Below are positions 35,386-62,490 of a stretch of DNA of 64,000 nucleotides, one piece after another. This stretch comes from Escherichia coli (GTDB taxonomy: Bacteria; Pseudomonadota; Gammaproteobacteria; Enterobacterales; Enterobacteriaceae), in the NCBI RefSeq assembly GCF_022846255.1, contig NZ_AP025682.1. One strand, 5' to 3'. A model generated the notes under the pieces. The model ran no database searches, was not told the origin of the DNA, and saw only the letters and a list, made by a program, of their open reading frames with translations. Within the stretch, counting starts at the first letter, position 1. Each line of letters starts with the position of its first letter. The position numbers and the translations under genes are program-made.

Positions 35386-35461
35386 GCCCGGATAGCTCAG
35401 TCGGTAGAGCAGGGGATTGAAAATCCCCGTGTCCTTGGTTCGATTCCGAGTCCGGGCACCA
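35386..35461 (+). tRNA. pheU: tRNA-Phe (anticodon GAA)
   Basis: GCCCGGATAGCTCAGTCGGTAGAGCAGGGGATTGAAAATCCCCGTGTCCTTGGTTCGATTCCGAGTCCGGGCACCA (76 nt); symbol by position downstream of yjdC. Confidence 0.92.
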
Positions 35462-37731: not shown

Positions 37732-38025
37732 ACCTTATCCTTATACTTGGTTATAATAAATGGCAAAACATATTTCTATAATACTGCTTCACCACAATAA
37801 ACACTGGCCCGCTATTTAAATACCCTGCAGGAAAACACGAATACATTAAGTCCCCCAACAGGACACATATAAATATTTAAATGCTTCCACCAGTGATATT
37901 TTAATGTACAGTCAACTACAACAGTAGCTGCCCGTTCATTAAACTTAACGTTCAATATATTTTCACAGATACTTAGCTACATATGTTCCATAACAGACGT
38001 CCACTTTTTGATGAAAAGGTGGACA

Positions 38026-38071
38026 CTGCATCACCAATACAAGTTTAACTGCATCACCAATACAAGTTTAA
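38026..38071. repeat. perfect tandem duplication of a 23-bp unit (CTGCATCACCAATACAAGTTTAA x2)
   Basis: Seen directly in the AT-rich spacer between the afaD-like and afaE-like genes. Confidence 0.8.
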
Positions 38072-38288
38072 TGGCTACATACGGCACTCAGTTTACACTT
38101 ACATTACATATGCATTTTAACACATCAACTATAACACCTTTATTTAAGTCTGTTGTGGACCATAGAATATGGTAAATTACAACAAGCAAAATAAAGTTAT
38201 ACATGCTTTTATAAAATAACATGCTATTTTAGAGGGCAGCCATTGACAACTGAATAGTTACTTTATTAGCATAAAGAAATTATGAATA

Positions 38289-53964: not shown

Positions 53965-55185
53965 TGTAGATTCAATCTGTCAATGCAACACCCCTTTCAA
54001 TTATCTCTTTCGGTGTTTTGAACTTCAGTGTCTTTCTCGGTCTGTTGTTTAGCTGAGCAGCAACCAGATCTAGTTCATGTTGAGTATATTGGGCAAGACA
54101 TGTCTTTTTAGGAAAGTACTGCCGAATTAGCCCATTTGTGTTCTCATTTGTTCCCCGCTGCCAAGGACTCTGAGGATCGCAGAAGTAAACTTTAACGCCG
54201 GTGCTGACAGTAAATTCTAGATGTCTGGCCAGTTCCATTCCTCTGTCCCATGTCAGTGATTTTCTGAGTTCTGACGGTAAACTCAGGAATTTGTCGGTAA
54301 GAGCCTGATTTACTGAGACAGAATCTTTGCCCCTGAGTCTAAGGATGATCGTATAACGTGATTTTCGGTCTACAAGTGTGGCTATATGAGAGTTTTTTGT
54401 ACCTGAGACTAAATCGCCCTCCCAATGCCCCAGAGAGCGTCTGTTATCGATATTTCGGGAACGTTCGTGAATTGGTGTTCCGTTCACTATGTTAATCGTA
54501 CCTCTTTCGCCTTTGCGGGTATGACGCCTGCCATGGCGAAGGCTATGCGACCGTCGCAGATGCTGTATATTCAGGTGGTGTAGCGCTTCACGGCTACGAA
54601 AGTACAGCGTTTTATAAATTGTCTCAGGTGATATTCGCAGCGTTTTTTGACGTGGTTTTGTTCGCCTTAACCATCCTGATATTTGCTCTGGAGACCATTT
54701 CATCTCCAGCTTTTCCAGAACAAGCTTTCGCAATGGTAAATTTTGATCCAGTAAGCACGGTTTTGGCCTTTTCGCCATTCTGTTGGCTCGGTTATTAGCA
54801 TCAACAGCTTTGTAATAGCGTCTGCCCCGATTACGCTGAACTTCACGTGAGATCGTCGAAGGACTGCGATTCAGCGCAGTAGCTATCGCACGAATGCTCA
54901 TTTTGGCTGACAAACCAGCTCGTATCTCCTCGCGCTCAGACAGTGTCAGGTGAGCTACAGCCCGCTTACGCTCATGGGGTTTTATGCCGCCAGTATCCCT
55001 TAACATAGTGAAGATCGTTCCGGGTTTTGAACCCAGGATATTCGCTATTTCACTGAAGCCTGTTCCGTTCTTCCATAGTTCAAAAACAGAGGCTTTTTCC
55101 TCTGCTGTAAATGTTCGTCTCATTCAAAAAACCTCCGCAACCCCATGTTTTCACATAACTGTTGCGTTGATCAATTGAATCTACA
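53965..55185 (-). mobile_element. IS30 (1221 bp) inserted into the IS600-like orfA
   Basis: Ends TGTAGATTCAATCTGTCAATGCAACA ... GTTGCGTTGATCAATTGAATCTACA; flanked by a 2-bp direct repeat GT; contains one 383-aa transposase. Confidence 0.85.
53972..55123 (-). CDS. IS30 transposase
   Basis: 383-aa ORF MRRTFTAEEKASVFELWKNGTGFSEIANILGSKPGTIFTMLRDTGG... with HTH and DDE regions; apparently intact. Confidence 0.85.
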   Translation of the reverse strand: MRRTFTAEEKASVFELWKNGTGFSEIANILGSKPGTIFTMLRDTGGIKPHERKRAVAHLTLSEREEIRAGLSAKMSIRAIATALNRSPSTISREVQRNRGRRYYKAVDANNRANRMAKRPKPCLLDQNLPLRKLVLEKLEMKWSPEQISGWLRRTKPRQKTLRISPETIYKTLYFRSREALHHLNIQHLRRSHSLRHGRRHTRKGERGTINIVNGTPIHERSRNIDNRRSLGHWEGDLVSGTKNSHIATLVDRKSRYTIILRLRGKDSVSVNQALTDKFLSLPSELRKSLTWDRGMELARHLEFTVSTGVKVYFCDPQSPWQRGTNENTNGLIRQYFPKKTCLAQYTQHELDLVAAQLNNRPRKTLKFKTPKEIIERGVALTD

Positions 55186-55448
55186 GTTGCTTTTTTTAAT
55201 ATATCTCGCTCAAGGCGAGCTTCATTTAACGCCTTACGCAGTTGCAGAATTTCAGATTCCAGTTCAGCCAGCGTGCGGGAACCAGGAGTACCGAGCCCTT
55301 TTCTGGCGGCGGTAACCCATTGTCCTAAAGTGCCTTCAGGAAGAGATAATCGGGAAGCGCCTTCACTGCTCGAAAGTTGATTTTCAAGAACCATTCTGAC
55401 AGCTTCGGCTTTGAACTCTTTAGAGTAACGTTGGGTTTTTCTGCTCAT
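55186..55448 (-). pseudogene. IS3-family (IS600-like) transposase OrfA, C-terminus displaced by the IS30 insertion
   Basis: MSRKTQRYSKEFKAEAVRMVLENQ...LERDILKKAT then the IS30 end; the remaining codons (AYFAQESLKNTR*) resume on the far side of IS30 at ~53925-53962. Confidence 0.7.
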
Positions 55449-55985
55449 TATTAGCTCCTTCTGATGCCATTCTATTTCAGGAAGGAGTGTCCGTTAAACT
55501 CAGGCTACCTCACAACAGGGGACAGACAACGCACGGGATAAAAGGGACGTTTTCGTCAGAATGTTGTTCTGCCGGCGCTGCATGTTCTCCCCGTATTCTG
55601 GCCAGTGTGATGCCAGTGTAAATTCATGTCAAAAAGTGTCAGCGAGAAAATTTACACCTGAAAAAGTCGGTCGTAAAACTGTTTCATGGCGAAACATCAG
55701 GAAGTATGTCAGAAATGTGATCGCTATTGTGGTTTTACGGAAGAGCATAAGGCAAAAAACGGCGGGAAATTCATTGACATTCACGGAGGATAAACAGCAC
55801 CATTTTATTATCCAGCAAGAAAACCGTAATCCCCCTCTGAATCCGGACAAGGTTCGTACTGGCAACATAACCTGAAATGGCACTAATGGCCAGAGCTTAC
55901 TAATACATAATCCCTACAGGATGTAGCCACCAGTTTTGTTCATCCGGTATTCTGATTTGGTAACATGCTCCAGAAAGGAAGAAAT

Positions 55986-57218
55986 ATGTACTGCAATGAA
56001 TTAAAAGAATTTGCGCAAGAGCAGGAACAAAAACTTATCAGTGCGCTTGCTGATACCAGAGAGCACCCGTCCCCCGATGGTGAAACAAGAAGCCGGGATA
56101 ATTATCAACGGGATTACGCGCGTATTCTGTATTCATCATCATTTCGCAGGTTGCAGGGAAAGATGCAACTTTTTGAAATTGATCCTGAAAAATTCAACAG
56201 AAACAGATTAACGCACAGTCTTGAGGTTGCTCAGATCGCCCGAAGTATCGCGTCAGACCTCAAACTGGTTAACCCGGTGGTGGTTGAACTGGCAGCTCTG
56301 GCGCATGACATCGGAAATCCTCCTTTCGGTCATTCCGGTGAAAAACTGCTTAATGAACTGTCTGAAGAAATCGGCGGCTATGAAGGTAATGCACAGGCGC
56401 TACGTATCCTGAGAAAACTGGAGAAGAAATTTTCATACTGCAACGGATTAAATCTGACTCACCGTAGTTTACTTTCGGTTGTTAAGTATCCCGCCCCTCG
56501 CACTGCAACTACTGCCGGCAAGTTCATTTATGATGATGACTTTGATTTTTATACTAACCTGCTTGCTGAAAATCAGCTCGATCTGAATCCCGGAGAGAAA
56601 ACGATTGATGCACAGATAATGGATCTCGCGGATGAGATTGCCTACGCTGCGCATGACCTGGAAGATGCCCTTAGCAGGAACATGGTCACGATTGAAGATA
56701 TTGAATATGAGTTTCAGATTTCTGACGAATTCCGGGGAGCGAGGGAACAGTTCAGGGAAATCGTTACTCAGTCGAGAAACACCGCTTTTCAGGCTAACTT
56801 ACTGAAAACCTCAGAAGAATTTGCCATCATATTCCGCAAGGAGTTAACTTCAAATATTGTCAATCGCCTCGTTGCTGATATTTCTGTAGTAACGAACCTG
56901 AATGGTTTTCAGGAACTGGGATTCGGGAAACTGAATGCGTTATCCGAAGGGCTCAAAAAACTTCTCTTTAAAGTCATCATGCGAAAACGTAATATCCTCA
57001 CCTATGAGTTCAGGGGAAATAAAATAATCAGGGATTTATATGACTTTTACAATGAAGGAGAGAATTATAAATTTCTGCCTCCTGAACTTAAATTCACCTT
57101 ACCCCAACCAGATTCCTGTATATTTGAAATCAGCAAAAAACGAGCAGTGGTTGACTATATTTCAGGTATGATGGATACATTTGCAGTCAAGGAATGGGAA
57201 ACTCACTGTCTGAAGTAA
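55986..57218 (+). CDS. Dgt-family HD-domain dNTP triphosphohydrolase-like protein (dGTPase-like)
   Basis: ORF track 55965..57218; HD motifs RLTHSLEVAQIARSIA and LAHDIGNPPFGHSGE plus EGNAQALRIL; RBS AAAGGAAG before ATG at 55986; AT-rich island gene. Confidence 0.8.
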   Translation: MYCNELKEFAQEQEQKLISALADTREHPSPDGETRSRDNYQRDYARILYSSSFRRLQGKMQLFEIDPEKFNRNRLTHSLEVAQIARSIASDLKLVNPVVVELAALAHDIGNPPFGHSGEKLLNELSEEIGGYEGNAQALRILRKLEKKFSYCNGLNLTHRSLLSVVKYPAPRTATTAGKFIYDDDFDFYTNLLAENQLDLNPGEKTIDAQIMDLADEIAYAAHDLEDALSRNMVTIEDIEYEFQISDEFRGAREQFREIVTQSRNTAFQANLLKTSEEFAIIFRKELTSNIVNRLVADISVVTNLNGFQELGFGKLNALSEGLKKLLFKVIMRKRNILTYEFRGNKIIRDLYDFYNEGENYKFLPPELKFTLPQPDSCIFEISKKRAVVDYISGMMDTFAVKEWETHCLK

Positions 57219-57317
57219 CACTGTCGATTACCAGAGGCGCATATTTTCCCGTTATGGTTATTGCGCCTTTATTCCGTTTCGGTGACAGGTTATTTTAAAT
57301 ATTCTGGAAATGCGTTG

Positions 57318-57887
57318 ATGGGCAAGAACAATTACCCTGAAAATAAATACAGGAAATGGTTTTCCACAGCAATAACATATCTTATTACAGGTGGTTTGTG
57401 CTGGTATATGTTGTGGGCATCCGCTATATCTCATTATACTGTTTTACAAAATACGGTACCTGAATGGACAACATATTTTTGCACCGGTATAATCACCGGA
57501 TCTCTTTCTTTTATTTATGCATTTTATATCCGCACCTTTAACAGAACATTAAAGTATTTATTAAATGCATTCACGGGGGGATTTTGTCTTGGATTTATAC
57601 TGAGTCTGAACTGTTACGATGTCTGTGTTTATCTTTTTCCGGATAAGGTTATTAGCTATGAATCTGAATATGATGTTGTTTTTCCGGGACCATCAAGAGG
57701 AAAGTATGGACATTGTGAAGCGGGACTCTGGTTGAAAGATCAAAACACTTCCAGATGGATACAACTTTGTACAAATAAAGAGTTCCTGCGCAGTCACCAT
57801 AAACAGGGGATGACAGGTGTATGGGTAACAGCTCGTGTTAATAAAATTGGGTCGTATATCGTGAAATATGAATTTATCTATATGTAG
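57318..57887 (+). CDS. hypothetical membrane protein (3 predicted TM helices plus ~90-aa soluble C-terminal domain)
   Basis: ORF track 57261..57887; hydrophobic segments ITYLITGGLCWYMLWASAI, GIITGSLSFIYAFYI, FTGGFCLGFILSLNCY; starts ~100 bp after the dGTPase-like gene on the same strand. Confidence 0.55.
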   Translation: MGKNNYPENKYRKWFSTAITYLITGGLCWYMLWASAISHYTVLQNTVPEWTTYFCTGIITGSLSFIYAFYIRTFNRTLKYLLNAFTGGFCLGFILSLNCYDVCVYLFPDKVISYESEYDVVFPGPSRGKYGHCEAGLWLKDQNTSRWIQLCTNKEFLRSHHKQGMTGVWVTARVNKIGSYIVKYEFIYM

Positions 57888-58303
57888 GTAAAAGCTGACA
57901 TGTTTACCATGGATGAGTTGCTATATTTTTGCGCATACAGGAGTAATCGATTACTGGCTATACTAAAAATACAGAGAAAAGCTATCCCGGGATAAAGATT
58001 ACCAACTCACAGAGACAAGCCTTGCCTTATAAACAGATAAATATCATCAACACAGATTCAGAAGCTGAAGCAGTAAGCCATGGTAAACTGCCTGCTGCCA
58101 GTACAGATAAAACAATCAGTCTCGCTGACTGGCTCTTATCACTATCGTTATTTCATAACTCTACAGTATAACTCATTTATCTTTATTGCCATATATTAGC
58201 ATGAAGTCAGGCATTTTCATTCCCTGCCGATAATATATCAACTCCGGAGAAGTGTTTACTATATATTCCTTGATATTAATACAGATCAAAATATATATTG
58301 CTG

Positions 58304-58738
58304 TTATTCATAATCAGGACCAGATGATACTTCCTGAGATATAAGAAAATCATCAAGAGAACCTCCGGCTTTTATAGCCTCTGCTATGGCCTTAGGCCGA
58401 CGTCCTTGTCCATTCCAGTACATTCTTTTACCGTTATCGTCATACTCGTATTTATGCCCTCCTGACACACTTTTTCTGCCTGCCTGTGACTTTTTGCCAA
58501 ATTCACGATAAAAATCTTCCAGAGATATACCATGTTCATCCATGAGTGATTTGATAGCTTTCATATTTTCCTTTCGCTCATTACGTTGCTGAATAGCTAT
58601 GTCAAAGTTTTCCTTAACCTTATTTAAATCTTCATCAGACATTTCTATAACCAGTTTTTTAACAAAGTCAATACTCAGAAGTAATGCCCGGTAAGTAATG
58701 AACTCTTCATTTTCAAAAGGAATTTTCTTCTTACTCAT
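58304..58738 (-). CDS. H-NS-family nucleoid-associated protein paralogue
   Basis: 144-aa ORF; C-terminal DNA-binding region GRKSVSGGHKYEYDDNGKRMYWNGQGRRPKAIAEAIKAGGSLDDFLI matches the H-NS motif (..Y.Y.DENG...TW.GQGR.P......GKSLDDFLI). Confidence 0.75.
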   Translation of the reverse strand: MSKKKIPFENEEFITYRALLLSIDFVKKLVIEMSDEDLNKVKENFDIAIQQRNERKENMKAIKSLMDEHGISLEDFYREFGKKSQAGRKSVSGGHKYEYDDNGKRMYWNGQGRRPKAIAEAIKAGGSLDDFLISQEVSSGPDYE

Positions 58739-59631
58739 TTATTAACACTCAGCTTTTCATTCATTTATGGCAAATCCTATCAGGTGATTCACCATAAAAA
58801 TAATATGTGTATCACATTTTTCGGTACTTAATCGTCACTTCCTTTCCGAAGGAAAGGCCATCGCAGAAAGTAAGAGAACGTTCTTTGTATTTGATACTTA
58901 GCGAAATTGCGCCGGTCACTACTTGTCTGAGTCCATTCACTTTCGTTAATGTTAATGAGAAAAACCCGCAGTATGATGCGTAATTTCATCAAACTGATGA
59001 AATTCGGTAGCAATCATATATCTGGTGTAGCCTGCATATTCGCAGGAACACGAATATCGATTATACTAATGGACTAACAATCTTCAGCCTCTTCAAGAAG
59101 ATGTTATAAATACACACAGATACTGATTCTCATCCCTTTCAGGCCTGGAACACTATTTCTGCTTTTTAGCATCATCTGGTAGCAATACTTTCCAGGTATG
59201 TCGCCCCATTTTTGTTCGTCTCCATTTTTTTAAGAAGTGCTCAAGTGAAAAACTTTTTACCTCTCCGGGAGTTGTCGTATTTGCTGATATTGTTCGTTTG
59301 TTTAAAGAACCTACTGGTCTTGCCATTAATATTACCTGCTGATTGCTTCACGCCCGGACTCCTCGCACTGTGCGCGGGTTATTGTTTCGTTTTCAGCCCC
59401 GGGGTCGCCAAGGCTCTGGATGGGGTACTACTTCCATTGACAGCATGAGGTAACAATACTGATGGTAACGCTGACCATTAACCGTAAACCACAGGGCATT
59501 TTCAGTAAATCACCGGCAACGCCGCTGCAGGATAAAACGAACACTGCACATAACGTGAAGGCCAGGGAACGGATACCACAGTTGAACGATAAACAGAGCC
59601 CTGCTCTGCTGAAAAAACACCGTGGCGGCAT

Positions 59632-59973
59632 ATGACAAAACGCCAGCGTAAAAACCGTGAGCGTATTAATCGTCTTGTGGAACACTGGCCTGAGTTATTC
59701 AACCGGGAAAAACCCCAACCGCTTAAAGTTGAGATATCTGACGACCTGATACAGGATATCGCCATCAGAGAACTGGCGTTTAGCGCAGGTGCATTACGCG
59801 CGGCAGTAGCGTCTTATGTGCAGTCTCCGCGCTATTACCGTGCGTTAATGGCAGGTGGCGCCCGTTACGACCTGAAGGGGCAACCGTGCGGGGAGGTGAC
59901 ACCACATGAACAGAAAGAGGCAGAGACCCGTTTAATGATGCTGAATGACCGACGAAAAGCCAGAAAGCGTTGA
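59632..59973 (+). CDS. ProQ/FinO-domain RNA-binding protein (small, island-encoded)
   Basis: 113-aa ORF; LRAAVASYVQSPRYYRALMAGGARYDLKGQPCGEVTPHEQKEAETR resembles the ProQ N-terminal domain ([39 protein letters not shown]) as I recall it. Confidence 0.65.
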   Translation: MTKRQRKNRERINRLVEHWPELFNREKPQPLKVEISDDLIQDIAIRELAFSAGALRAAVASYVQSPRYYRALMAGGARYDLKGQPCGEVTPHEQKEAETRLMMLNDRRKARKR

Positions 59974-59977
59974 TTCA

Positions 59978-60772
59978 CTAAGCTGTAATCAATGTACAGC
60001 GCTGTACCGGACGATGGGTAATGGCGGTCACAACCGGTAACCCCAGAGACAATGTGACTGTTTTTAACGCAACATACTGGCCGGATGTATCACCCCGGGC
60101 GACCTGAAAACACTTTTCCACCCGGCATTGTCCGCCAGCGCTTATCACCTGCCAGGTCTGTTGTAGTAAATCCACCAGTTGTGAACATTCTTCATCAACT
60201 GTCACACTGGCTCGCGGATGGCAAATGCTCGTCTGGCTGAGCAGCAACAGGCATCGCATTGTTGCTCCTCCATGTTGTTCCCGCAACCAGCGTAATACCA
60301 CCGGCGATGATGGACTGGCCGTGTGATTACGCTCAGTAATACGTTCGTGCACCTGTCGATAAAAGGAAGTACAGAATGCATAAATCTGTTGCCCGTTGAT
60401 ATTTCCTTCTGCCGAATGGAGTGTGAAGTGAAATGCCAGCAGATGTGGCCAGTGGTCCACCGCCTGCTGAATAAAACGCCGGATATCTCCCGGCTCTGAA
60501 AGTAAGGCTTCGGTTATTTGCACGGAATACGACTCCTTCAGACTCTGTTGAATTTTGTTAAGCCGGTGCAGACACACGGGAAAATACGCATCAACACCGG
60601 CACGATACGATACAAACACCAGTGACTGGTGATACGAATGGAATGACGAATACGTCAGAAAGGAATACCCCCCGCTGGCTGACAGGAGGGTATCAGCAGG
60701 AAGATGAACGGGAATGTCGCCAGCACCAGGGACAGGGCTGATTTCCACAATACCAGCGCCGGCATTTTGCAC
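59978..60772 (-). CDS. hypothetical protein (island cargo, downstream of AlpA-like gene)
   Basis: 264-aa ORF from the track; no family recognised; true start uncertain. Confidence 0.4.
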   Translation of the reverse strand: MQNAGAGIVEISPVPGAGDIPVHLPADTLLSASGGYSFLTYSSFHSYHQSLVFVSYRAGVDAYFPVCLHRLNKIQQSLKESYSVQITEALLSEPGDIRRFIQQAVDHWPHLLAFHFTLHSAEGNINGQQIYAFCTSFYRQVHERITERNHTASPSSPVVLRWLREQHGGATMRCLLLLSQTSICHPRASVTVDEECSQLVDLLQQTWQVISAGGQCRVEKCFQVARGDTSGQYVALKTVTLSLGLPVVTAITHRPVQRCTLITA

Positions 60773-60802
60773 ATCGCCAGCGTACCGGTATTACAACACG
60801 TT

Positions 60803-61132
60803 TCATGCAGCAGCTCCTCGTGACTCCTCGATTCGCTGCTGCATCCACTGCTCCACTTCGCTTTTGTACCAGCGGCTGCTGCGACCCAGTTTGATGGGTT
60901 TAGGAAAATGGCCTTCACTGATCAGCTTGTAAAACCATTTGTCAGTCATACCGGTGAAGCTGGTGATGTAGTTCATGTCGATCAGGGGATCGTCGGCACG
61001 CAGCAACACGCTGTCGTGGCTTATTGTTGTCAACATGGTCAGAATGTCCTCTGTGAGATTTATGAAGGTTGGGCAAATGCGGGTGAATCTGCTGAACGGA
61101 GTTTTCAGAGCTGGCCTGCTACGGGATACCAA
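60803..61132 (-). CDS. AlpA-family phage/island transcriptional regulator (HTH)
   Basis: Track ORF 109 aa; C-terminal part ITSFTGMTDKWFYKLISEGHFPKPIKLGRSSRWYKSEVEQWM matches the AlpA-type HTH; true start probably an internal Met. Confidence 0.65.
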   Translation of the reverse strand: MVSRSRPALKTPFSRFTRICPTFINLTEDILTMLTTISHDSVLLRADDPLIDMNYITSFTGMTDKWFYKLISEGHFPKPIKLGRSSRWYKSEVEQWMQQRIEESRGAAA

Positions 61133-61809
61133 GGATTACCAGCGAGGCAACGGGCTTCCGGATCGCACACTCCACGGCGATCGCGGGCGAAATCACTGAA
61201 CGCCCATATCAACTCTTTGAGGATGTCTTCGCAGTCCGGTGAACGACTGTCCAGCAGCACATCCCGGGTGATCTGCTTCTGGTACGGTGCCGCTTCATCC
61301 GGTGACGCGAAGCCCAGTACGTTGCTCCAGGCATCCAGAATCAACCGATCCAGTTCAGGGCCATCGAAATGCTCCTGTCTGACGCACAGCACCACGTGGT
61401 ATTCCGGCTTTTCCGGATGACGGGTCAGGAGCCAGCAAAGGTCGCGTCCGGGTTTCGCATTCATCAGCGCACTGACGGTTTCGATAAAATCCATACCAAA
61501 CCAGGTCGTTCTGCTGTTGAAGGTATTGTCATATTCACACGGTAGACGAAGCAGGATCCGCCGTACCCGGGAGCAGGACTGTTCACGCAGCGCACGCTCA
61601 AGAACGCCGATGACTTTGCTCTGATAAGATGGCCAGAAGGGGGCAAGGCTATCGTCGAAATAAGGAATAGCATTCATAAGATATGCTCCGTTATGCGCAG
61701 CCCACAACGCGTCCTGCCCGTGAATGAGCTGACGTGTTATGGCTTGCGGATGAGATTGATGGAATAAGTGAAGAACTGAAGCAGAACGGGAAGATAAGGG
61801 ACAGAACAC
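61105..61809 (-). CDS. hypothetical protein (island cargo)
   Basis: 234-aa ORF from the track, same strand and operon-like spacing with AlpA-like gene; no family recognised. Confidence 0.4.
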   Translation of the reverse strand: MFCPLSSRSASVLHLFHQSHPQAITRQLIHGQDALWAAHNGAYLMNAIPYFDDSLAPFWPSYQSKVIGVLERALREQSCSRVRRILLRLPCEYDNTFNSRTTWFGMDFIETVSALMNAKPGRDLCWLLTRHPEKPEYHVVLCVRQEHFDGPELDRLILDAWSNVLGFASPDEAAPYQKQITRDVLLDSRSPDCEDILKELIWAFSDFARDRRGVCDPEARCLAGNPWYPVAGQL

Positions 61810-61923
61810 CGGATACAGGTTCAGGATGAATGATCTCCGTTGACTTCAGTTCACATCATTAATCAATGCGGTAAGTTTTTACCGACGGAGTGTTTCCAGG
61901 AGCGGAGGCTCAGGCCTTAAGCT

Positions 61924-62490
61924 TCAGAAGTGAGGCTTACGAGGACGCCCTGCAGCAGGACGTTCAGGAACTTCATTGCAGCCGTAGGCACACAGCCCGT
62001 CTTTTTGCTCTTCTTTCGCCAGATAATGCAGGGCACCGCGAATATTATCGATGCTTTCAGGATCGTTGTGGCGCACAGGAATGTTGATGTTGTATGTATA
62101 ATGCGGCTGATATGTACAGCGGTGTGCCGAACCGCTGTTATGCGTAATAGACCGCCAGCATTCCGTAATCCGCTCCGCAAAGGGATATATTTTTTTAACC
62201 CTCTGACGATCGATCCAGAAAACCGCATGCGCATGAAAACCATGATCAACCGTCCATTCAATCACCCAGAAGAAGCCAACGATATTTTCAAATTGTTCCA
62301 CCTGCTCCAGCAGCATACGCAACTGCAATTCAAGCCAGCGATGATCAGGTTGTAAGAAATCAGGCGTATCTTTCCTGTAGAAGAAATCCATGCGTAAGGC
62401 CCGCAGGCAGGAATAGCGTGCCATCATTTGATTGATGTGATTGTCAAGTAAAGCGGTAAAAAACCAGTTTGGTGTGTAAGATTTAGGCAT
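61924..62490 (-). CDS. hypothetical protein (island cargo)
   Basis: 188-aa ORF from the track; no family recognised. Confidence 0.4.
   Translation of the reverse strand: MPKSYTPNWFFTALLDNHINQMMARYSCLRALRMDFFYRKDTPDFLQPDHRWLELQLRMLLEQVEQFENIVGFFWVIEWTVDHGFHAHAVFWIDRQRVKKIYPFAERITECWRSITHNSGSAHRCTYQPHYTYNINIPVRHNDPESIDNIRGALHYLAKEEQKDGLCAYGCNEVPERPAAGRPRKPHF

Follow-up and report, generated by a model that had tools for sequence, protein, structure and literature searches.

At the locus described here, a gene for an H-NS-family protein and a gene of the ProQ/FinO family stand back to back on either side of a mosaic junction, and we find it reasonably probable that these are two unrelated regulatory genes, i.e. 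an intact H-NS gene and a decaying FinO gene, with a spacer between them that consists of promoters and leaders and holds no detectable sRNA gene. The window, i.e. the whole stretch of 64,000 nucleotides of Escherichia coli DNA that was analysed, carries both genes within a CP4-like island whose integration site is tRNA-Phe (pheU), on a chromosome of the E. coli type. According to the ORF list, the H-NS gene lies on the minus strand at the lower coordinates and the FinO gene on the plus strand at the higher ones. The pair is thus divergent and not convergent, as an initial reading of the letters (the sequence-only reading) had described it; the convergent partner of the FinO gene is a backbone gene on its other side. 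The genes around the junction are:

55965-57218, plus strand: anti-phage-type dGTPase, cargo (NCBIfam dGTP_triPase 1.4e-95; PADLOC dGTPase 1.3e-110)
57318-57887, plus strand: 189-aa hypothetical protein, cargo, travelling with the H-NS paralogue
58304-58738, minus strand: intact gene for a divergent nucleoid-associated protein of the H-NS family (144 aa and a stop codon)
59462-59635, plus strand: 57-aa ORF, the 5' piece of the FinO-family gene, equivalent to the N-terminal extension of full-length homologues
59632-59973, plus strand: FinO-domain ORF (113 aa), 3' part of the split gene (Pfam, PDB, AF2/Foldseek)
59978-60526, minus strand: UCP030791/YagK-like backbone gene, convergent with FinO (ORF list, homologues)
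60803-61132, minus strand: AlpA-like HTH regulator of the backbone (Pfam Phage_AlpA 3.9e-10)
61105-61809, minus strand: hypothetical backbone protein, with homologues of about 190 aa and a position kept in all backbone loci
61924-62490, minus strand: inovirus Gp2/YagK-YfjJ-type backbone gene (weak Pfam REP_ORF2-G2P and YagK_YfjJ_C matches)

That the H-NS and FinO genes are neighbours by mosaic accident, and no conserved unit, follows from their distribution. Homology to other FinO contexts ends at 59187 (BLAST, alignment), which marks the mosaic junction. Across 5426 complete E. coli genomes, the full arrangement of H-NS and FinO was found in 200 and any match in 1455. The backbone module, in the order FinO, UCP030791, AlpA, hypothetical protein and Gp2/YagK, is paired with many different left-hand cargoes, and its FinO side elsewhere adjoins T6SS, CDI, IS1, dnd or Rpn cargo without the present H-NS gene. 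On the cargo side, the genes for the dGTPase, the 189-aa protein and the H-NS paralogue keep an identical order in L001-L003, in all of which the 144-aa ORF is intact, and the cassette that they form is AT-rich (36-37 % GC). PADLOC matched the dGTPase alone, with no defence-system match for the H-NS, FinO or backbone proteins. In database sequence searches, the island FinO was never found on plasmids in this form.

Within the backbone, the homologues of the UCP030791/YagK-like gene are 182 aa long and annotated as UCP030791 or YagK/YfjJ domain proteins. The AlpA-like gene keeps its position in L001-L010, L013 and L016, and its true start is probably internal to the ORF given above, since the homologues are only 76-79 aa long. 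For the hypothetical protein that follows, searches of Pfam, NCBIfam, PADLOC and PHROG returned no family match, while the last gene of the module is labelled 'inovirus-type Gp2 protein' in RefSeq.

The suggestion of the sequence-only reading that the island brings its own nucleoid-associated protein was borne out, and in other genomes a 61 %-identical paralogue of 146 aa (listed in 4769 blocks of the contig index) is found with the same backbone, at the opposite end and about 5 kb from FinO. Since this 144/146-aa clade recurs with the backbone, some functional link between the island nucleoid-associated protein and the backbone is possible. A functional H-NS/FinO pair with an sRNA in between, by contrast, is not supported, given the divergent orientation, the junction at 59187, the damaged FinO gene and the lack of sRNA signals in the gap, and adjacency alone is no ground for pairing the two.

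The family assignment of the 144-aa protein stands on firm profile matches. Both H-NS models of Pfam (PF00816 and PF22470) scored above their gathering cut-offs, i.e. HNS_C with 2.2e-12 (47 bits versus 25.6) and HNS_N with 2e-07 (31.2 bits versus 24.5, residues 19-76), and the DNA-binding motif is present as YWNGQGRRP, in agreement with the AT-hook-like family pattern (T/S)WxGQGRxP, with Q-G-R invariant in the alignment. An H-NS paralogue lacking this motif would have been misnamed by the sequence-only reading; the alignment to H-NS and StpA that it had called for confirmed the name instead. The best PDB sequence matches were the C-terminal domains of StpA (8.5e-8) and H-NS (2e-6), again with QGR conserved. 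Overall, the protein shares 32 % identity with H-NS and 36 % with StpA; the PDB-based alignments are independent of the H-NS and StpA sequences used for these two figures. Nevertheless, the protein is neither H-NS nor StpA proper: besides the low identity, it scored well below the NCBIfam equivalog cut-offs for StpA (62.8 bits versus 202) and H-NS (34.5 versus 211). Compared with both, it is extended by 12 aa at the N-terminus, lacks 11 aa of the central helix and has an acidic tail, and the position of H-NS Arg12 is taken by Asp, in an N-terminal alignment of low confidence. Between the 144-aa protein and its 146-aa paralogue, omega is about 0.46.

As judged from sequence, then, membership in the H-NS family and conservation of the motif are established, and from these we infer DNA binding, oligomerisation and targets. 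The protein would contact the minor groove of AT-rich DNA with the canonical QGR hook of its C-terminal domain, would self-associate via a shortened, divergent N-terminal coiled coil and may thereby act as an island-borne silencer or as a modulator of H-NS-type repression. It could be argued that the protein is no silencer, and that, like Ler or H-NST, it serves as an anti-silencer or a dominant-negative modulator whose divergent oligomerisation domain would relieve H-NS repression of the island genes. The strong divergence of the N-terminal domain (i.e. the extension, the central-helix deletion and the Asp at the Arg12 position) and the scores far under both equivalog cut-offs would fit such a role. 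However, H-NST is devoid of the DNA-binding domain, whereas the 144-aa protein has both domains at full length, and the divergence itself is read from the low-confidence part of the alignment; we therefore regard this role as unlikely. Literature searches returned no functional study on the 144/146-aa clade. If it is active, it would add a deeply divergent, island-borne branch to the known H-NS paralogues. A sizeable share of E. coli genomes carries this branch, and in those strains it could then alter the sharing of H-NS silencing between core and acquired DNA.

The second gene encodes a genuine FinO domain. The 113-aa ORF matched Pfam ProQ/FinO (PF04352) with 1.9e-24 (86.2 bits versus a cut-off of 27) over profile positions 3-107 of 109, and its PDB sequence matches were the N-terminal domain of ProQ, FinO, NMB1681 and RocC. 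The AF2 model (pLDDT 90.2, pTM 0.78) has the FinO fold: in Foldseek, the best 26 PDB matches were all FinO-domain structures (FinO, RocC, NMB1681 and Lpp1663; TM about 0.75-0.78, rmsd 2.0-2.4 A), with the next one at E>1. The comparison with ProQ, FinO and RocC suggested by the sequence-only reading thus upheld a ProQ/FinO-like protein at 59632-59973, in sequence as well as in fold. An assignment to FinO proper or ProQ proper was rejected on the NCBIfam scores, which lie below the cut-offs for FinO (64.8 bits versus 136) and ProQ (53.6 versus 127), as do those of the intact FinO homologues.

What does not stand is the small size. The sequence-only reading described a small FinO-domain protein, and the domain is there, yet the ORF is only the 3' part of a frameshifted gene of the 165-180-aa type. 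Full-length relatives are 165-180 aa long, their FinO domain being preceded by an extension of about 55 aa, and the 57-aa ORF directly upstream (MVTLTINRKPQGIF...) matches the N-termini of homologues of 164-171 aa (P0006, P0009, P0011, P0012 and P0013). The extension of the island subfamily follows the pattern M-x-x-LTINRKP-x-GI... TPWRHM, which in intact members is part of a single uninterrupted ORF and here is not. The NCBIfam FinO model does not align to this extension; its LTINRKP..GI motif and the Trp in TPWRH may correspond to the N-terminus of FinO and its Trp36, which they resemble. Two lesions were mapped:

59601-59617, plus strand: frameshift lesion, i.e. a tandem CTGCT duplication (59601-59605 and 59606-59610), then an A6 run (59612-59617)
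59417-59418: junction lacking a 188-bp segment, directly ahead of the FinO ribosome-binding site

The 5-bp CTGCT duplication, identified by alignment with alleles that do not carry it, yields the 57-aa and 113-aa ORFs, the stop of the former overlapping the start of the latter as ATGA. In RefSeq, the split allele is marked 'frameshifted' in two of five records (EC42405 and strain 317), with two CDS in the other three (SCU-101, 55989 and strain 100248). L004, L008, L009 and L010 carry the segment missing at the second site, L006 has part of it, and in L005 it measures 218 bp; about 547 genomes have the insert-bearing form and about 221 the junction without it.

A third change concerns the domain itself. 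The position of RocC Gly52 is Glu34 in the 113-aa ORF, while at least 90 % of the family alignment has Gly there. In RocC, this glycine is nearly completely conserved and stabilises the beta-turn of the 3'-nucleotide pocket (PMC9674577). The change to Glu need not be inactivating, because the intact full-length allele L009 has Glu as well.

Taken together, the FinO gene of the window carries three lesions, i.e. the CTGCT frameshift, the 188-bp loss directly upstream and Glu at a near-invariant glycine, and it is therefore most likely a pseudogene or decaying gene. Other copies carry independent lesions: L005 and L010 share a 2-bp deletion, L005 is frameshifted once more, L003 contains an internal stop, and L001 has at least seven replacements, several of which fall on residues that are otherwise invariant. 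Against decay, the 113-aa ORF is uninterrupted and has kept S50, R56, Y68 and R78 at the positions of the RNA-contacting RocC residues Ser70, Arg75, Tyr87 and Arg97 (3'-end pocket and helix N-cap), a correspondence obtained by alignment to ProQ, with the numbering then carried over to RocC by hand.

This raises the question of whether the split gene could still work, either through coupling at the ATGA overlap, which would give a minimal RNA binder, or through a -1 slip on the A6 run, which would restore a near-ancestral full-length protein (...KQSPALLKK/TPWRHMTKRQ..., compared with the ancestral ...KQKPADKTPWRHMTKRQ...). Relative to the N-terminal ORF, the domain frame is shifted by exactly -1, and it is open from 59593; the A6 run was created by a T-to-A change beside the duplication, and A6 followed by C is what we take to be the IS1 frameshift motif. 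An ATGA overlap of stop and start is typical of translationally coupled genes. Roughly 330-430 genomes carry the split allele, in several island contexts, with the domain ORF uninterrupted in six of eight sampled copies, and the confident model with its FinO fold would suit a folded product. For the slip, however, the zero-frame context G AAA AAA C is not a canonical X XXY YYZ heptamer, and no convincing stimulatory structure lies downstream, the sole hairpin (59617-59631) needing G-U pairs on the opposite strand. For either route, the 188-bp loss may have taken a promoter or leader, and the additional lesions in L001 and L003 together with the frameshifts at other sites in L005 and L010 give a pattern of decay and not of a maintained recoding site.

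Selection points the same way. Among intact FinO copies, omega is 0.13-0.17, but a low omega of the split domain against divergent alleles most plausibly reflects a recombined 3' segment and is not taken as a sign of purifying selection on the split domain. Close split alleles differ in the FinO domain by 0 synonymous versus 1-6 nonsynonymous changes; because these changes are solely nonsynonymous, there is no evidence of selection after the split. Retained function of the split gene, by coupling and slippage taken jointly, is therefore doubtful, and decay remains our preferred explanation. At best, termination-reinitiation at the overlap would give the bare 113-aa domain, which, by analogy with other family members, might bind RNA 3' hairpins without the extension that confers chaperone activity, a role known for extensions of FinO-family proteins (PMC9977716).

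The spacer was scrutinised as a possible home of an sRNA, as the sequence-only reading had placed an ORF-poor gap of about 900 bp at 58740-59630. That interval takes in the FinO 5' fragment, so that the true intergenic distance from the H-NS gene to the 5' fragment (58739-59461) is about 720 bp. It comprises:

58739-59186: cargo-side intergenic part, present solely in the roughly 200 genomes with the shared arrangement
58982-59004: inverted repeat with perfect 10-bp arms, AATTTCATCA-aac-TGATGAAATT, the one place in the gap with strong structure
59153-59326, minus strand: RefSeq 57-aa hypothetical ORF, a doubtful gene
59187-59417: 231-bp block travelling with the FinO gene, 96-97 % identical in other island contexts

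The H-NS paralogue must have its promoter in the cargo-side part, and the spacer as a whole would consist of two promoter/leader regions joined at the 59187 junction. The 57-aa ORF matched phrog_21027, a PHROG of unassigned function, at 4.6e-10 over residues 25-56, with no Pfam match and no tblastn match in phages; its homologues are restricted to Escherichia, are 41-91 aa long and change frames and C-termini, and it was consequently not accepted as a reliable gene.

The case for an sRNA here is tied to the idea of two-tier control, i.e. transcriptional silencing by the H-NS paralogue and post-transcriptional control by FinO, with the sRNA partner of the latter encoded in the spacer. FinO proteins of mobile elements typically work with an antisense or small RNA of their own, as in FinO/FinP, FopA, PcnR and RocC/RocR (PMC9977716), and the recurrence of the 144/146-aa H-NS clade with the same backbone would be in keeping with such a unit. 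Weak terminator-like hairpins are somewhat more numerous than in shuffles (4 versus 1.4), one of them on the plus strand at 59362-59378, inside the FinO-linked block. Promoter-like sites, on the other hand, occur at chance level (5 versus 4.8), and the Rfam scan of 57800-60900 gave nothing at E<=1; at the gathering threshold, the families found across 35000-64000 were AfaR, isrC and tRNA-Phe only, all outside the spacer. Shuffled versions fold at least as well as the conserved block (59187-59400) on both strands (z +0.9 and +0.8), and no noncoding element upstream of the FinO genes is shared across the more distant contexts (L007, L008 and L011). The inverted repeat would appear to favour a structured RNA, but sliding-window folding of the palindromic region 58950-59075 gave z -3.3 to -3.9 on both strands. 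Equal scores on both strands mark a palindrome in the DNA and not an RNA specific to one strand. Considering also that the adjacency is confined to the 200 genomes, that the related H-NS gene elsewhere sits at the far end of the backbone and that the FinO gene of the window is damaged, we deem a two-tier unit of this kind very unlikely. The proposed sRNA gene is thus unsupported, although computational scans of this sort could miss a novel RNA, and a spacer of joined promoters and leaders remains the reading that we adopt.

On the other side of FinO, its stop codon and that of the UCP030791/YagK-like gene are 4 nt apart, and terminator scans detected no terminator between or just past the two genes. 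In most sampled loci, the two gene ends are separated by 1-18 nt; because of this spacing and the missing terminator, tail-to-tail overlap of the transcripts might be expected. It is tempting to speculate that the intact island FinO of about 170 aa is an RNA matchmaker for the AlpA/Gp2-YagK module of the island, acting on the sense-antisense pair formed by FinO and UCP030791, with silencing by the 144/146-aa H-NS added on top and the split allele still supplying protein by coupling or a -1 slip. The analogues would be FinO/FinP and FopA/Inc, which control transfer or replication genes; as a whole, this chain is a long shot. Literature searches found no functional study on the island FinO. Regardless, the H-NS and FinO genes are ordinary, uncharacterised members of known families, and the FinO gene should be annotated as split and probably decaying. 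With DNA matches in up to 1455 of the 5426 genomes, the island type is nonetheless a candidate for a third class of FinO-domain proteins in E. coli, in addition to ProQ and the FinO of plasmids.

Among known systems, the 144-aa protein is most readily compared to Hfp (H-NS2) of UPEC 536 and EAEC 042 and to Sfh of plasmid R27, which are likewise acquired, full-length, two-domain H-NS proteins of mobile elements with QGR kept (PMC2814080, PMC7544231). Hfp has 134 aa, is 57.7 % identical to H-NS and resides in asnW or serU islands (PMC2814080, PMC7544231), whereas the present protein is 32 % identical to H-NS, lies in a pheU island and has the N-terminal extension, shortened central helix and acidic tail described above. 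Going by the published description, it therefore falls outside the Hfp clade (about 134 aa, asnW/serU or EARL islands). The HlpC clade is reported to keep Arg12 (PMC7544231), in contrast to the Asp of the 144-aa protein in the low-confidence alignment.

For the FinO gene, ProQ and its minimal homologues Lpp1663 and NMB1681 share the FinO domain, and the 113-aa ORF is similar in size to such domain-only proteins. In contrast to ProQ, however, it is without a Tudor-like C-terminal domain and stays at 53.6 versus 127 bits, and its size stems from the frameshift and does not reflect a native architecture as in the minimal homologues. F-like plasmid FinO resembles it in fold (1dvo: TM 0.78, rmsd 2.0 A, 32 % identity), and the intact island subfamily shares further traits with it, i.e. 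an N-terminal extension of about 55 aa, no C-terminal Tudor domain and coding on a mobile element. Unlike the plasmid gene with its FinP/traJ circuit, the island gene is chromosomal, without tra/FinP context, and scores 64.8 versus 136 bits, and the window copy has lost the extension because of the frameshift. Finally, the plasmid proteins FopA (pCol1B9) and PcnR (IncI2), also of the FinO family, act with antisense RNAs on replication-initiator mRNAs; by analogy, the island FinO, likewise small, carried on a mobile element and encoded beside genes annotated as replication-initiator-like (Gp2/YagK-YfjJ), might be their counterpart.

The window is an E. coli-type chromosome with a mosaic island to the right of a tRNA-Phe gene. 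On the left, this gene is bordered by aspA-dcuA-cutA-dsbD-dicD, a stretch matching E. coli genomes at up to 99.5 % identity, and the integration site is therefore pheU. The GC content is 36-37 % over 57000-59000 and then 47-53 % over 59000-62000. The island and its edge contain the following features:

35386-35461, tRNA-Phe gene
right of tRNA-Phe, P4-type integrase
right of tRNA-Phe, chaperone-usher fimbrial operon
37974-38230 (+), AfaR sRNA family (270 bits, full length), adjoining the fimbrial operon
44410-44532 (-), isrC sRNA family (135 bits, full length)
right of tRNA-Phe, IS630, MFS transporter and oxidoreductase
52338-52997, before the H-NS/FinO region, truncated ShlB/CdiB-type gene with POTRA domains only
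53972-55448 (-), also before that region, 383-aa transposase ORF (assigned to IS30 from the sequence by eye) overlapping or abutting a 122-aa IS3-family orfA-like ORF; left edge of the dGTPase/H-NS cassette
55965-57218 (+), dGTPase fitting anti-phage dGTPase models (PADLOC, 1.3e-110; NCBIfam dGTP_triPase, 1.4e-95)
58304-58738 (-), H-NS paralogue, 144 aa
59153-59326 (-), RefSeq-annotated 57-aa ORF
59462-59635, 57-aa ORF with the FinO N-terminus
59632-59973 (+), FinO ORF, 113 aa
59978-60526 (-), UCP030791/YagK-like gene

The dGTPase, a 189-aa hypothetical protein and the H-NS paralogue travel as one AT-rich cassette, with an IS3-family element on the left side in all four copies examined.

Both family assignments made in the sequence-only reading held up. 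The H-NS paralogue exceeds the gathering score for each of the two Pfam H-NS domains (C-terminal, 2.2e-12; N-terminal, 2e-07), aligns with the DNA-binding-domain structures of StpA (8.5e-8) and H-NS (2e-6), and keeps the DNA-binding motif with an intact Q-G-R hook (YWNGQGRRP). Identity is 32 % to H-NS and 36 % to StpA (BLAST gave 47 % in a 55-aa and 41 % in an 82-aa alignment), and the protein scores far under the NCBIfam equivalog cut-offs; it is a member of the Pfam H-NS family, in none of the named subfamilies. Its N-terminus is extended by 12 aa, 11 aa are missing from the central-helix region and the protein carries a 9-aa acidic tail; the C-terminal domain is highly conserved. The ORF was intact in every copy seen, with an omega of about 0.46 against a related 146-aa clade, and we infer AT-rich DNA binding and self-association.

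The FinO ORF matches the Pfam ProQ/FinO family over nearly the entire profile (1.9e-24), as well as the PDB sequences of ProQ-NTD, FinO, NMB1681 and RocC. An AlphaFold2 model built with 25 homologues reached a mean pLDDT of 90.2, and its best 26 PDB fold matches were all FinO-domain structures (TM 0.64-0.78, rmsd mostly 2.0-2.7 Å), the 27th having E>1; loss of the H-NS motif or of the FinO fold, which would have refuted the assignments, is thus not seen. Again, the gene is a Pfam family member in none of the named subfamilies.

The two genes had been described as a convergent pair. In fact, they are divergent, as the H-NS ORF starts at 58738 on the minus strand and the FinO ORF at 59632 on the plus strand; the gene convergent with FinO is the one at 59978-60526 (-). 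Nor is the 113-aa ORF a small FinO-domain protein in its own right, but only part of a gene: among the best 120 protein clusters, most relatives have 158-190 aa. They start with M-V/T-T/K-LTINRKP-x-GI, followed by a variable Q/K/T-rich linker and then by ...KTPWRHMTKRQRKNR, where the FinO domain begins. In the window, this N-terminus lies in the separate 57-aa ORF at 59462-59635, in another frame. DNA alignment with other alleles located the lesion to a tandem CTGCT duplication (59601-59605 and 59606-59610), followed by an A6 run created by a T-to-A change. RefSeq treats this CTGCT allele as a 'frameshifted' ProQ/FINO pseudogene in EC42405 and 317, and annotates two CDS instead in SCU-101, 55989 and strain 100248. 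The window copy fails as an intact member of its own subfamily.

Across 11 loci, i.e. the window (59462-59635) and loci fetched from other genomes (L-numbers), indels concentrate in the linker that joins the conserved N-terminal motif to the FinO domain: a 35-bp in-frame deletion (L004, L009), the 5-bp duplication seen in the window and a 2-bp deletion (L005, L010). Within the domain, residue 34 is Glu instead of the Gly carried by at least 90 % of the aligned relatives; via ProQ, it aligns with the beta-turn glycine of the 3'-nucleotide pocket. In RocC, this is Gly52, which PMC9674577 calls 'nearly completely conserved'. RocC Ser70, Arg75, Tyr87 and Arg97 correspond to S50, R56, Y68 and R78 and are conserved. 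Since the intact allele L009 also has Glu at this position, Glu34 is no proof of inactivation.

The CTGCT allele is common, being found in about 330 and at most 429 genomes, around one-third of 1001 positive genomes (91-nt probe over the lesion, 98.9 % match, full coverage), and in several island contexts. It is conceivable that the split gene keeps residual function: its stop and start overlap (ATGA), which allows termination-reinitiation, and the FinO frame, open from 59593, lies precisely at -1 to that of the N-terminal ORF, so that a -1 slip on A6 would give ...KQSPALLKK-TPWRHMTKRQ..., near the ancestral ...KQKPADKTPWRHMTKRQ.... As the extensions supply duplexing and strand exchange and the FinO domain alone binding and stability (FinO/ProQ review, PMC9977716), the bare 113-aa product would be a binder, not a matchmaker. 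Intact family members are under strong constraint (omega 0.13-0.17). Among eight sampled split copies, L003 has an internal stop and L001 at least seven replacements, of which several hit positions that are invariant elsewhere (SPHYSCALMADG vs SPRYYRALMAGG in relatives), and the close group of L002, L008, L013 and L016 shows no synonymous vs one to six nonsynonymous differences. The window copy differs from this group by seven synonymous changes, clustered with an L004/L010-type C-terminus, a pattern that points to recombination of this segment, not to selection acting since the split. Other alleles carry other lesions: L005 and L010 share the 2-bp deletion, and L005 has one more frameshift. 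Judged from the sequences, the lesions form a pattern of apparent repeated decay.

Because the 57-aa ORF at 59462-59635 belongs to the FinO gene, the true spacer is 58739-59461, around 720 bp, and the rest of the supposed ~900-bp gap (58740-59630) holds the FinO 5' part. Immediately before the FinO ribosome-binding site, the window and its closest relatives, L001-L003, lack 188 bp (junction 59417/59418), a further lesion of the locus; this segment is present in L004, L008, L009 and L010, partial in L006 and 218 bp long in L005, and a 91-nt junction probe matched in one piece at ≥95 % identity in about 221 genomes and in two pieces around the insert in about 547.

The sRNA proposed for this gap found no support. 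An Rfam search of the spacer (E≤1) returned no family, sigma-70-like sites occurred at chance frequency (5 vs 4.8), and a comparison of the regions ahead of FinO genes from other contexts revealed no common noncoding element. Terminator-like hairpins numbered 4 vs 1.4 expected; a weak one at 59362-59378 (+) lies within the block travelling with FinO (59187-59417), whose folding is poorer than that of shuffled sequences on either strand. The sole structured spot, 58950-59075, is centred on a perfect 10-bp inverted repeat (58982-59004) and gives equal scores for the two strands (z about -3.3 to -3.9), behaving as a DNA palindrome would; folding is thus not strand-specific. The annotated ORF at 59153-59326 (-), with its first 46 codons inside the travelling block, matches phrog_21027 (4.6e-10). 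Its homologues, restricted to Escherichia, switch frame and C-terminus, and conservation therefore looks DNA-level rather than protein-level.

The whole arrangement (≥80 % of 58250-60000) is present in 200 of 5426 complete E. coli genomes and parts of it in 1455, always chromosomal, with mere fragments matching on plasmids. Homology with other contexts starts at 59187, 59293 or 59418 and extends rightward, into a backbone of FinO (+), convergent UCP030791/YagK-like gene (-), AlpA-like HTH, 190-aa hypothetical and inovirus-Gp2/YagK-YfjJ protein. FinO is its first gene in ten fetched loci, as well as in L013 and L016, whereas the cargo to the left varies, comprising T6SS genes, cdiBA, IS1, a dnd cluster or Rpn nuclease, and IS3-dGTPase-hypothetical-H-NS in the window. 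Given this variation and the homology starting at 59187, this position is a mosaic junction within the spacer; the H-NS and FinO genes do not form a unit.

The 146-aa H-NS paralogue, 61 % identical to the window's, is very widespread (4769 blocks of the contig index). In L013 (6001-11715) and L016 (6001-11686), it is located some 2.2 kb upstream of the backbone's Gp2 end, with the split FinO at the other end. The backbone is thus flanked, in different genomes, by two branches of one H-NS clade on opposite sides. What remains of the association is therefore that this clade accompanies the island type, not FinO specifically. Distant FinO relatives (78 % nucleotide identity) occur in PICI/P4-like elements beside DUF927 primase and PerC, and a proQ-like and PerC-like pair is listed for region ROD34 of EAEC 042 (PMC2808357). 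In one such element (L011, 3851-4665), which also carries Icd-like and DUF927 primase genes, a 176-aa full-length relative overlaps a co-directional PerC-family gene by 4 nt, a second, different genomic niche of this FinO subfamily.

Only 4 nt separate the FinO stop (59971-59973) from that of the UCP030791/YagK-like gene (59978-59980); in most other sampled loci, the distance is 1-18 nt. With no terminator detected on either side of these ends, tail-to-tail overlap of the two transcripts is expected; an action of the backbone FinO protein on them would be a long shot.

RefSeq routinely annotates both genes in hundreds of genomes, and we found no functional study of either island gene in the literature. 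The finding is correct, ordinary and at annotation level; its interpretation was over-read. In how they would work, the H-NS paralogue resembles Hfp, H-NS2 and Sfh, and the intact form of the FinO gene resembles FinO, FopA and PcnR. In sequence, the 144-aa paralogue with 32 % identity to H-NS is unlike Hfp, which has 134 aa and is 57.7 % identical to H-NS (PMC2814080).
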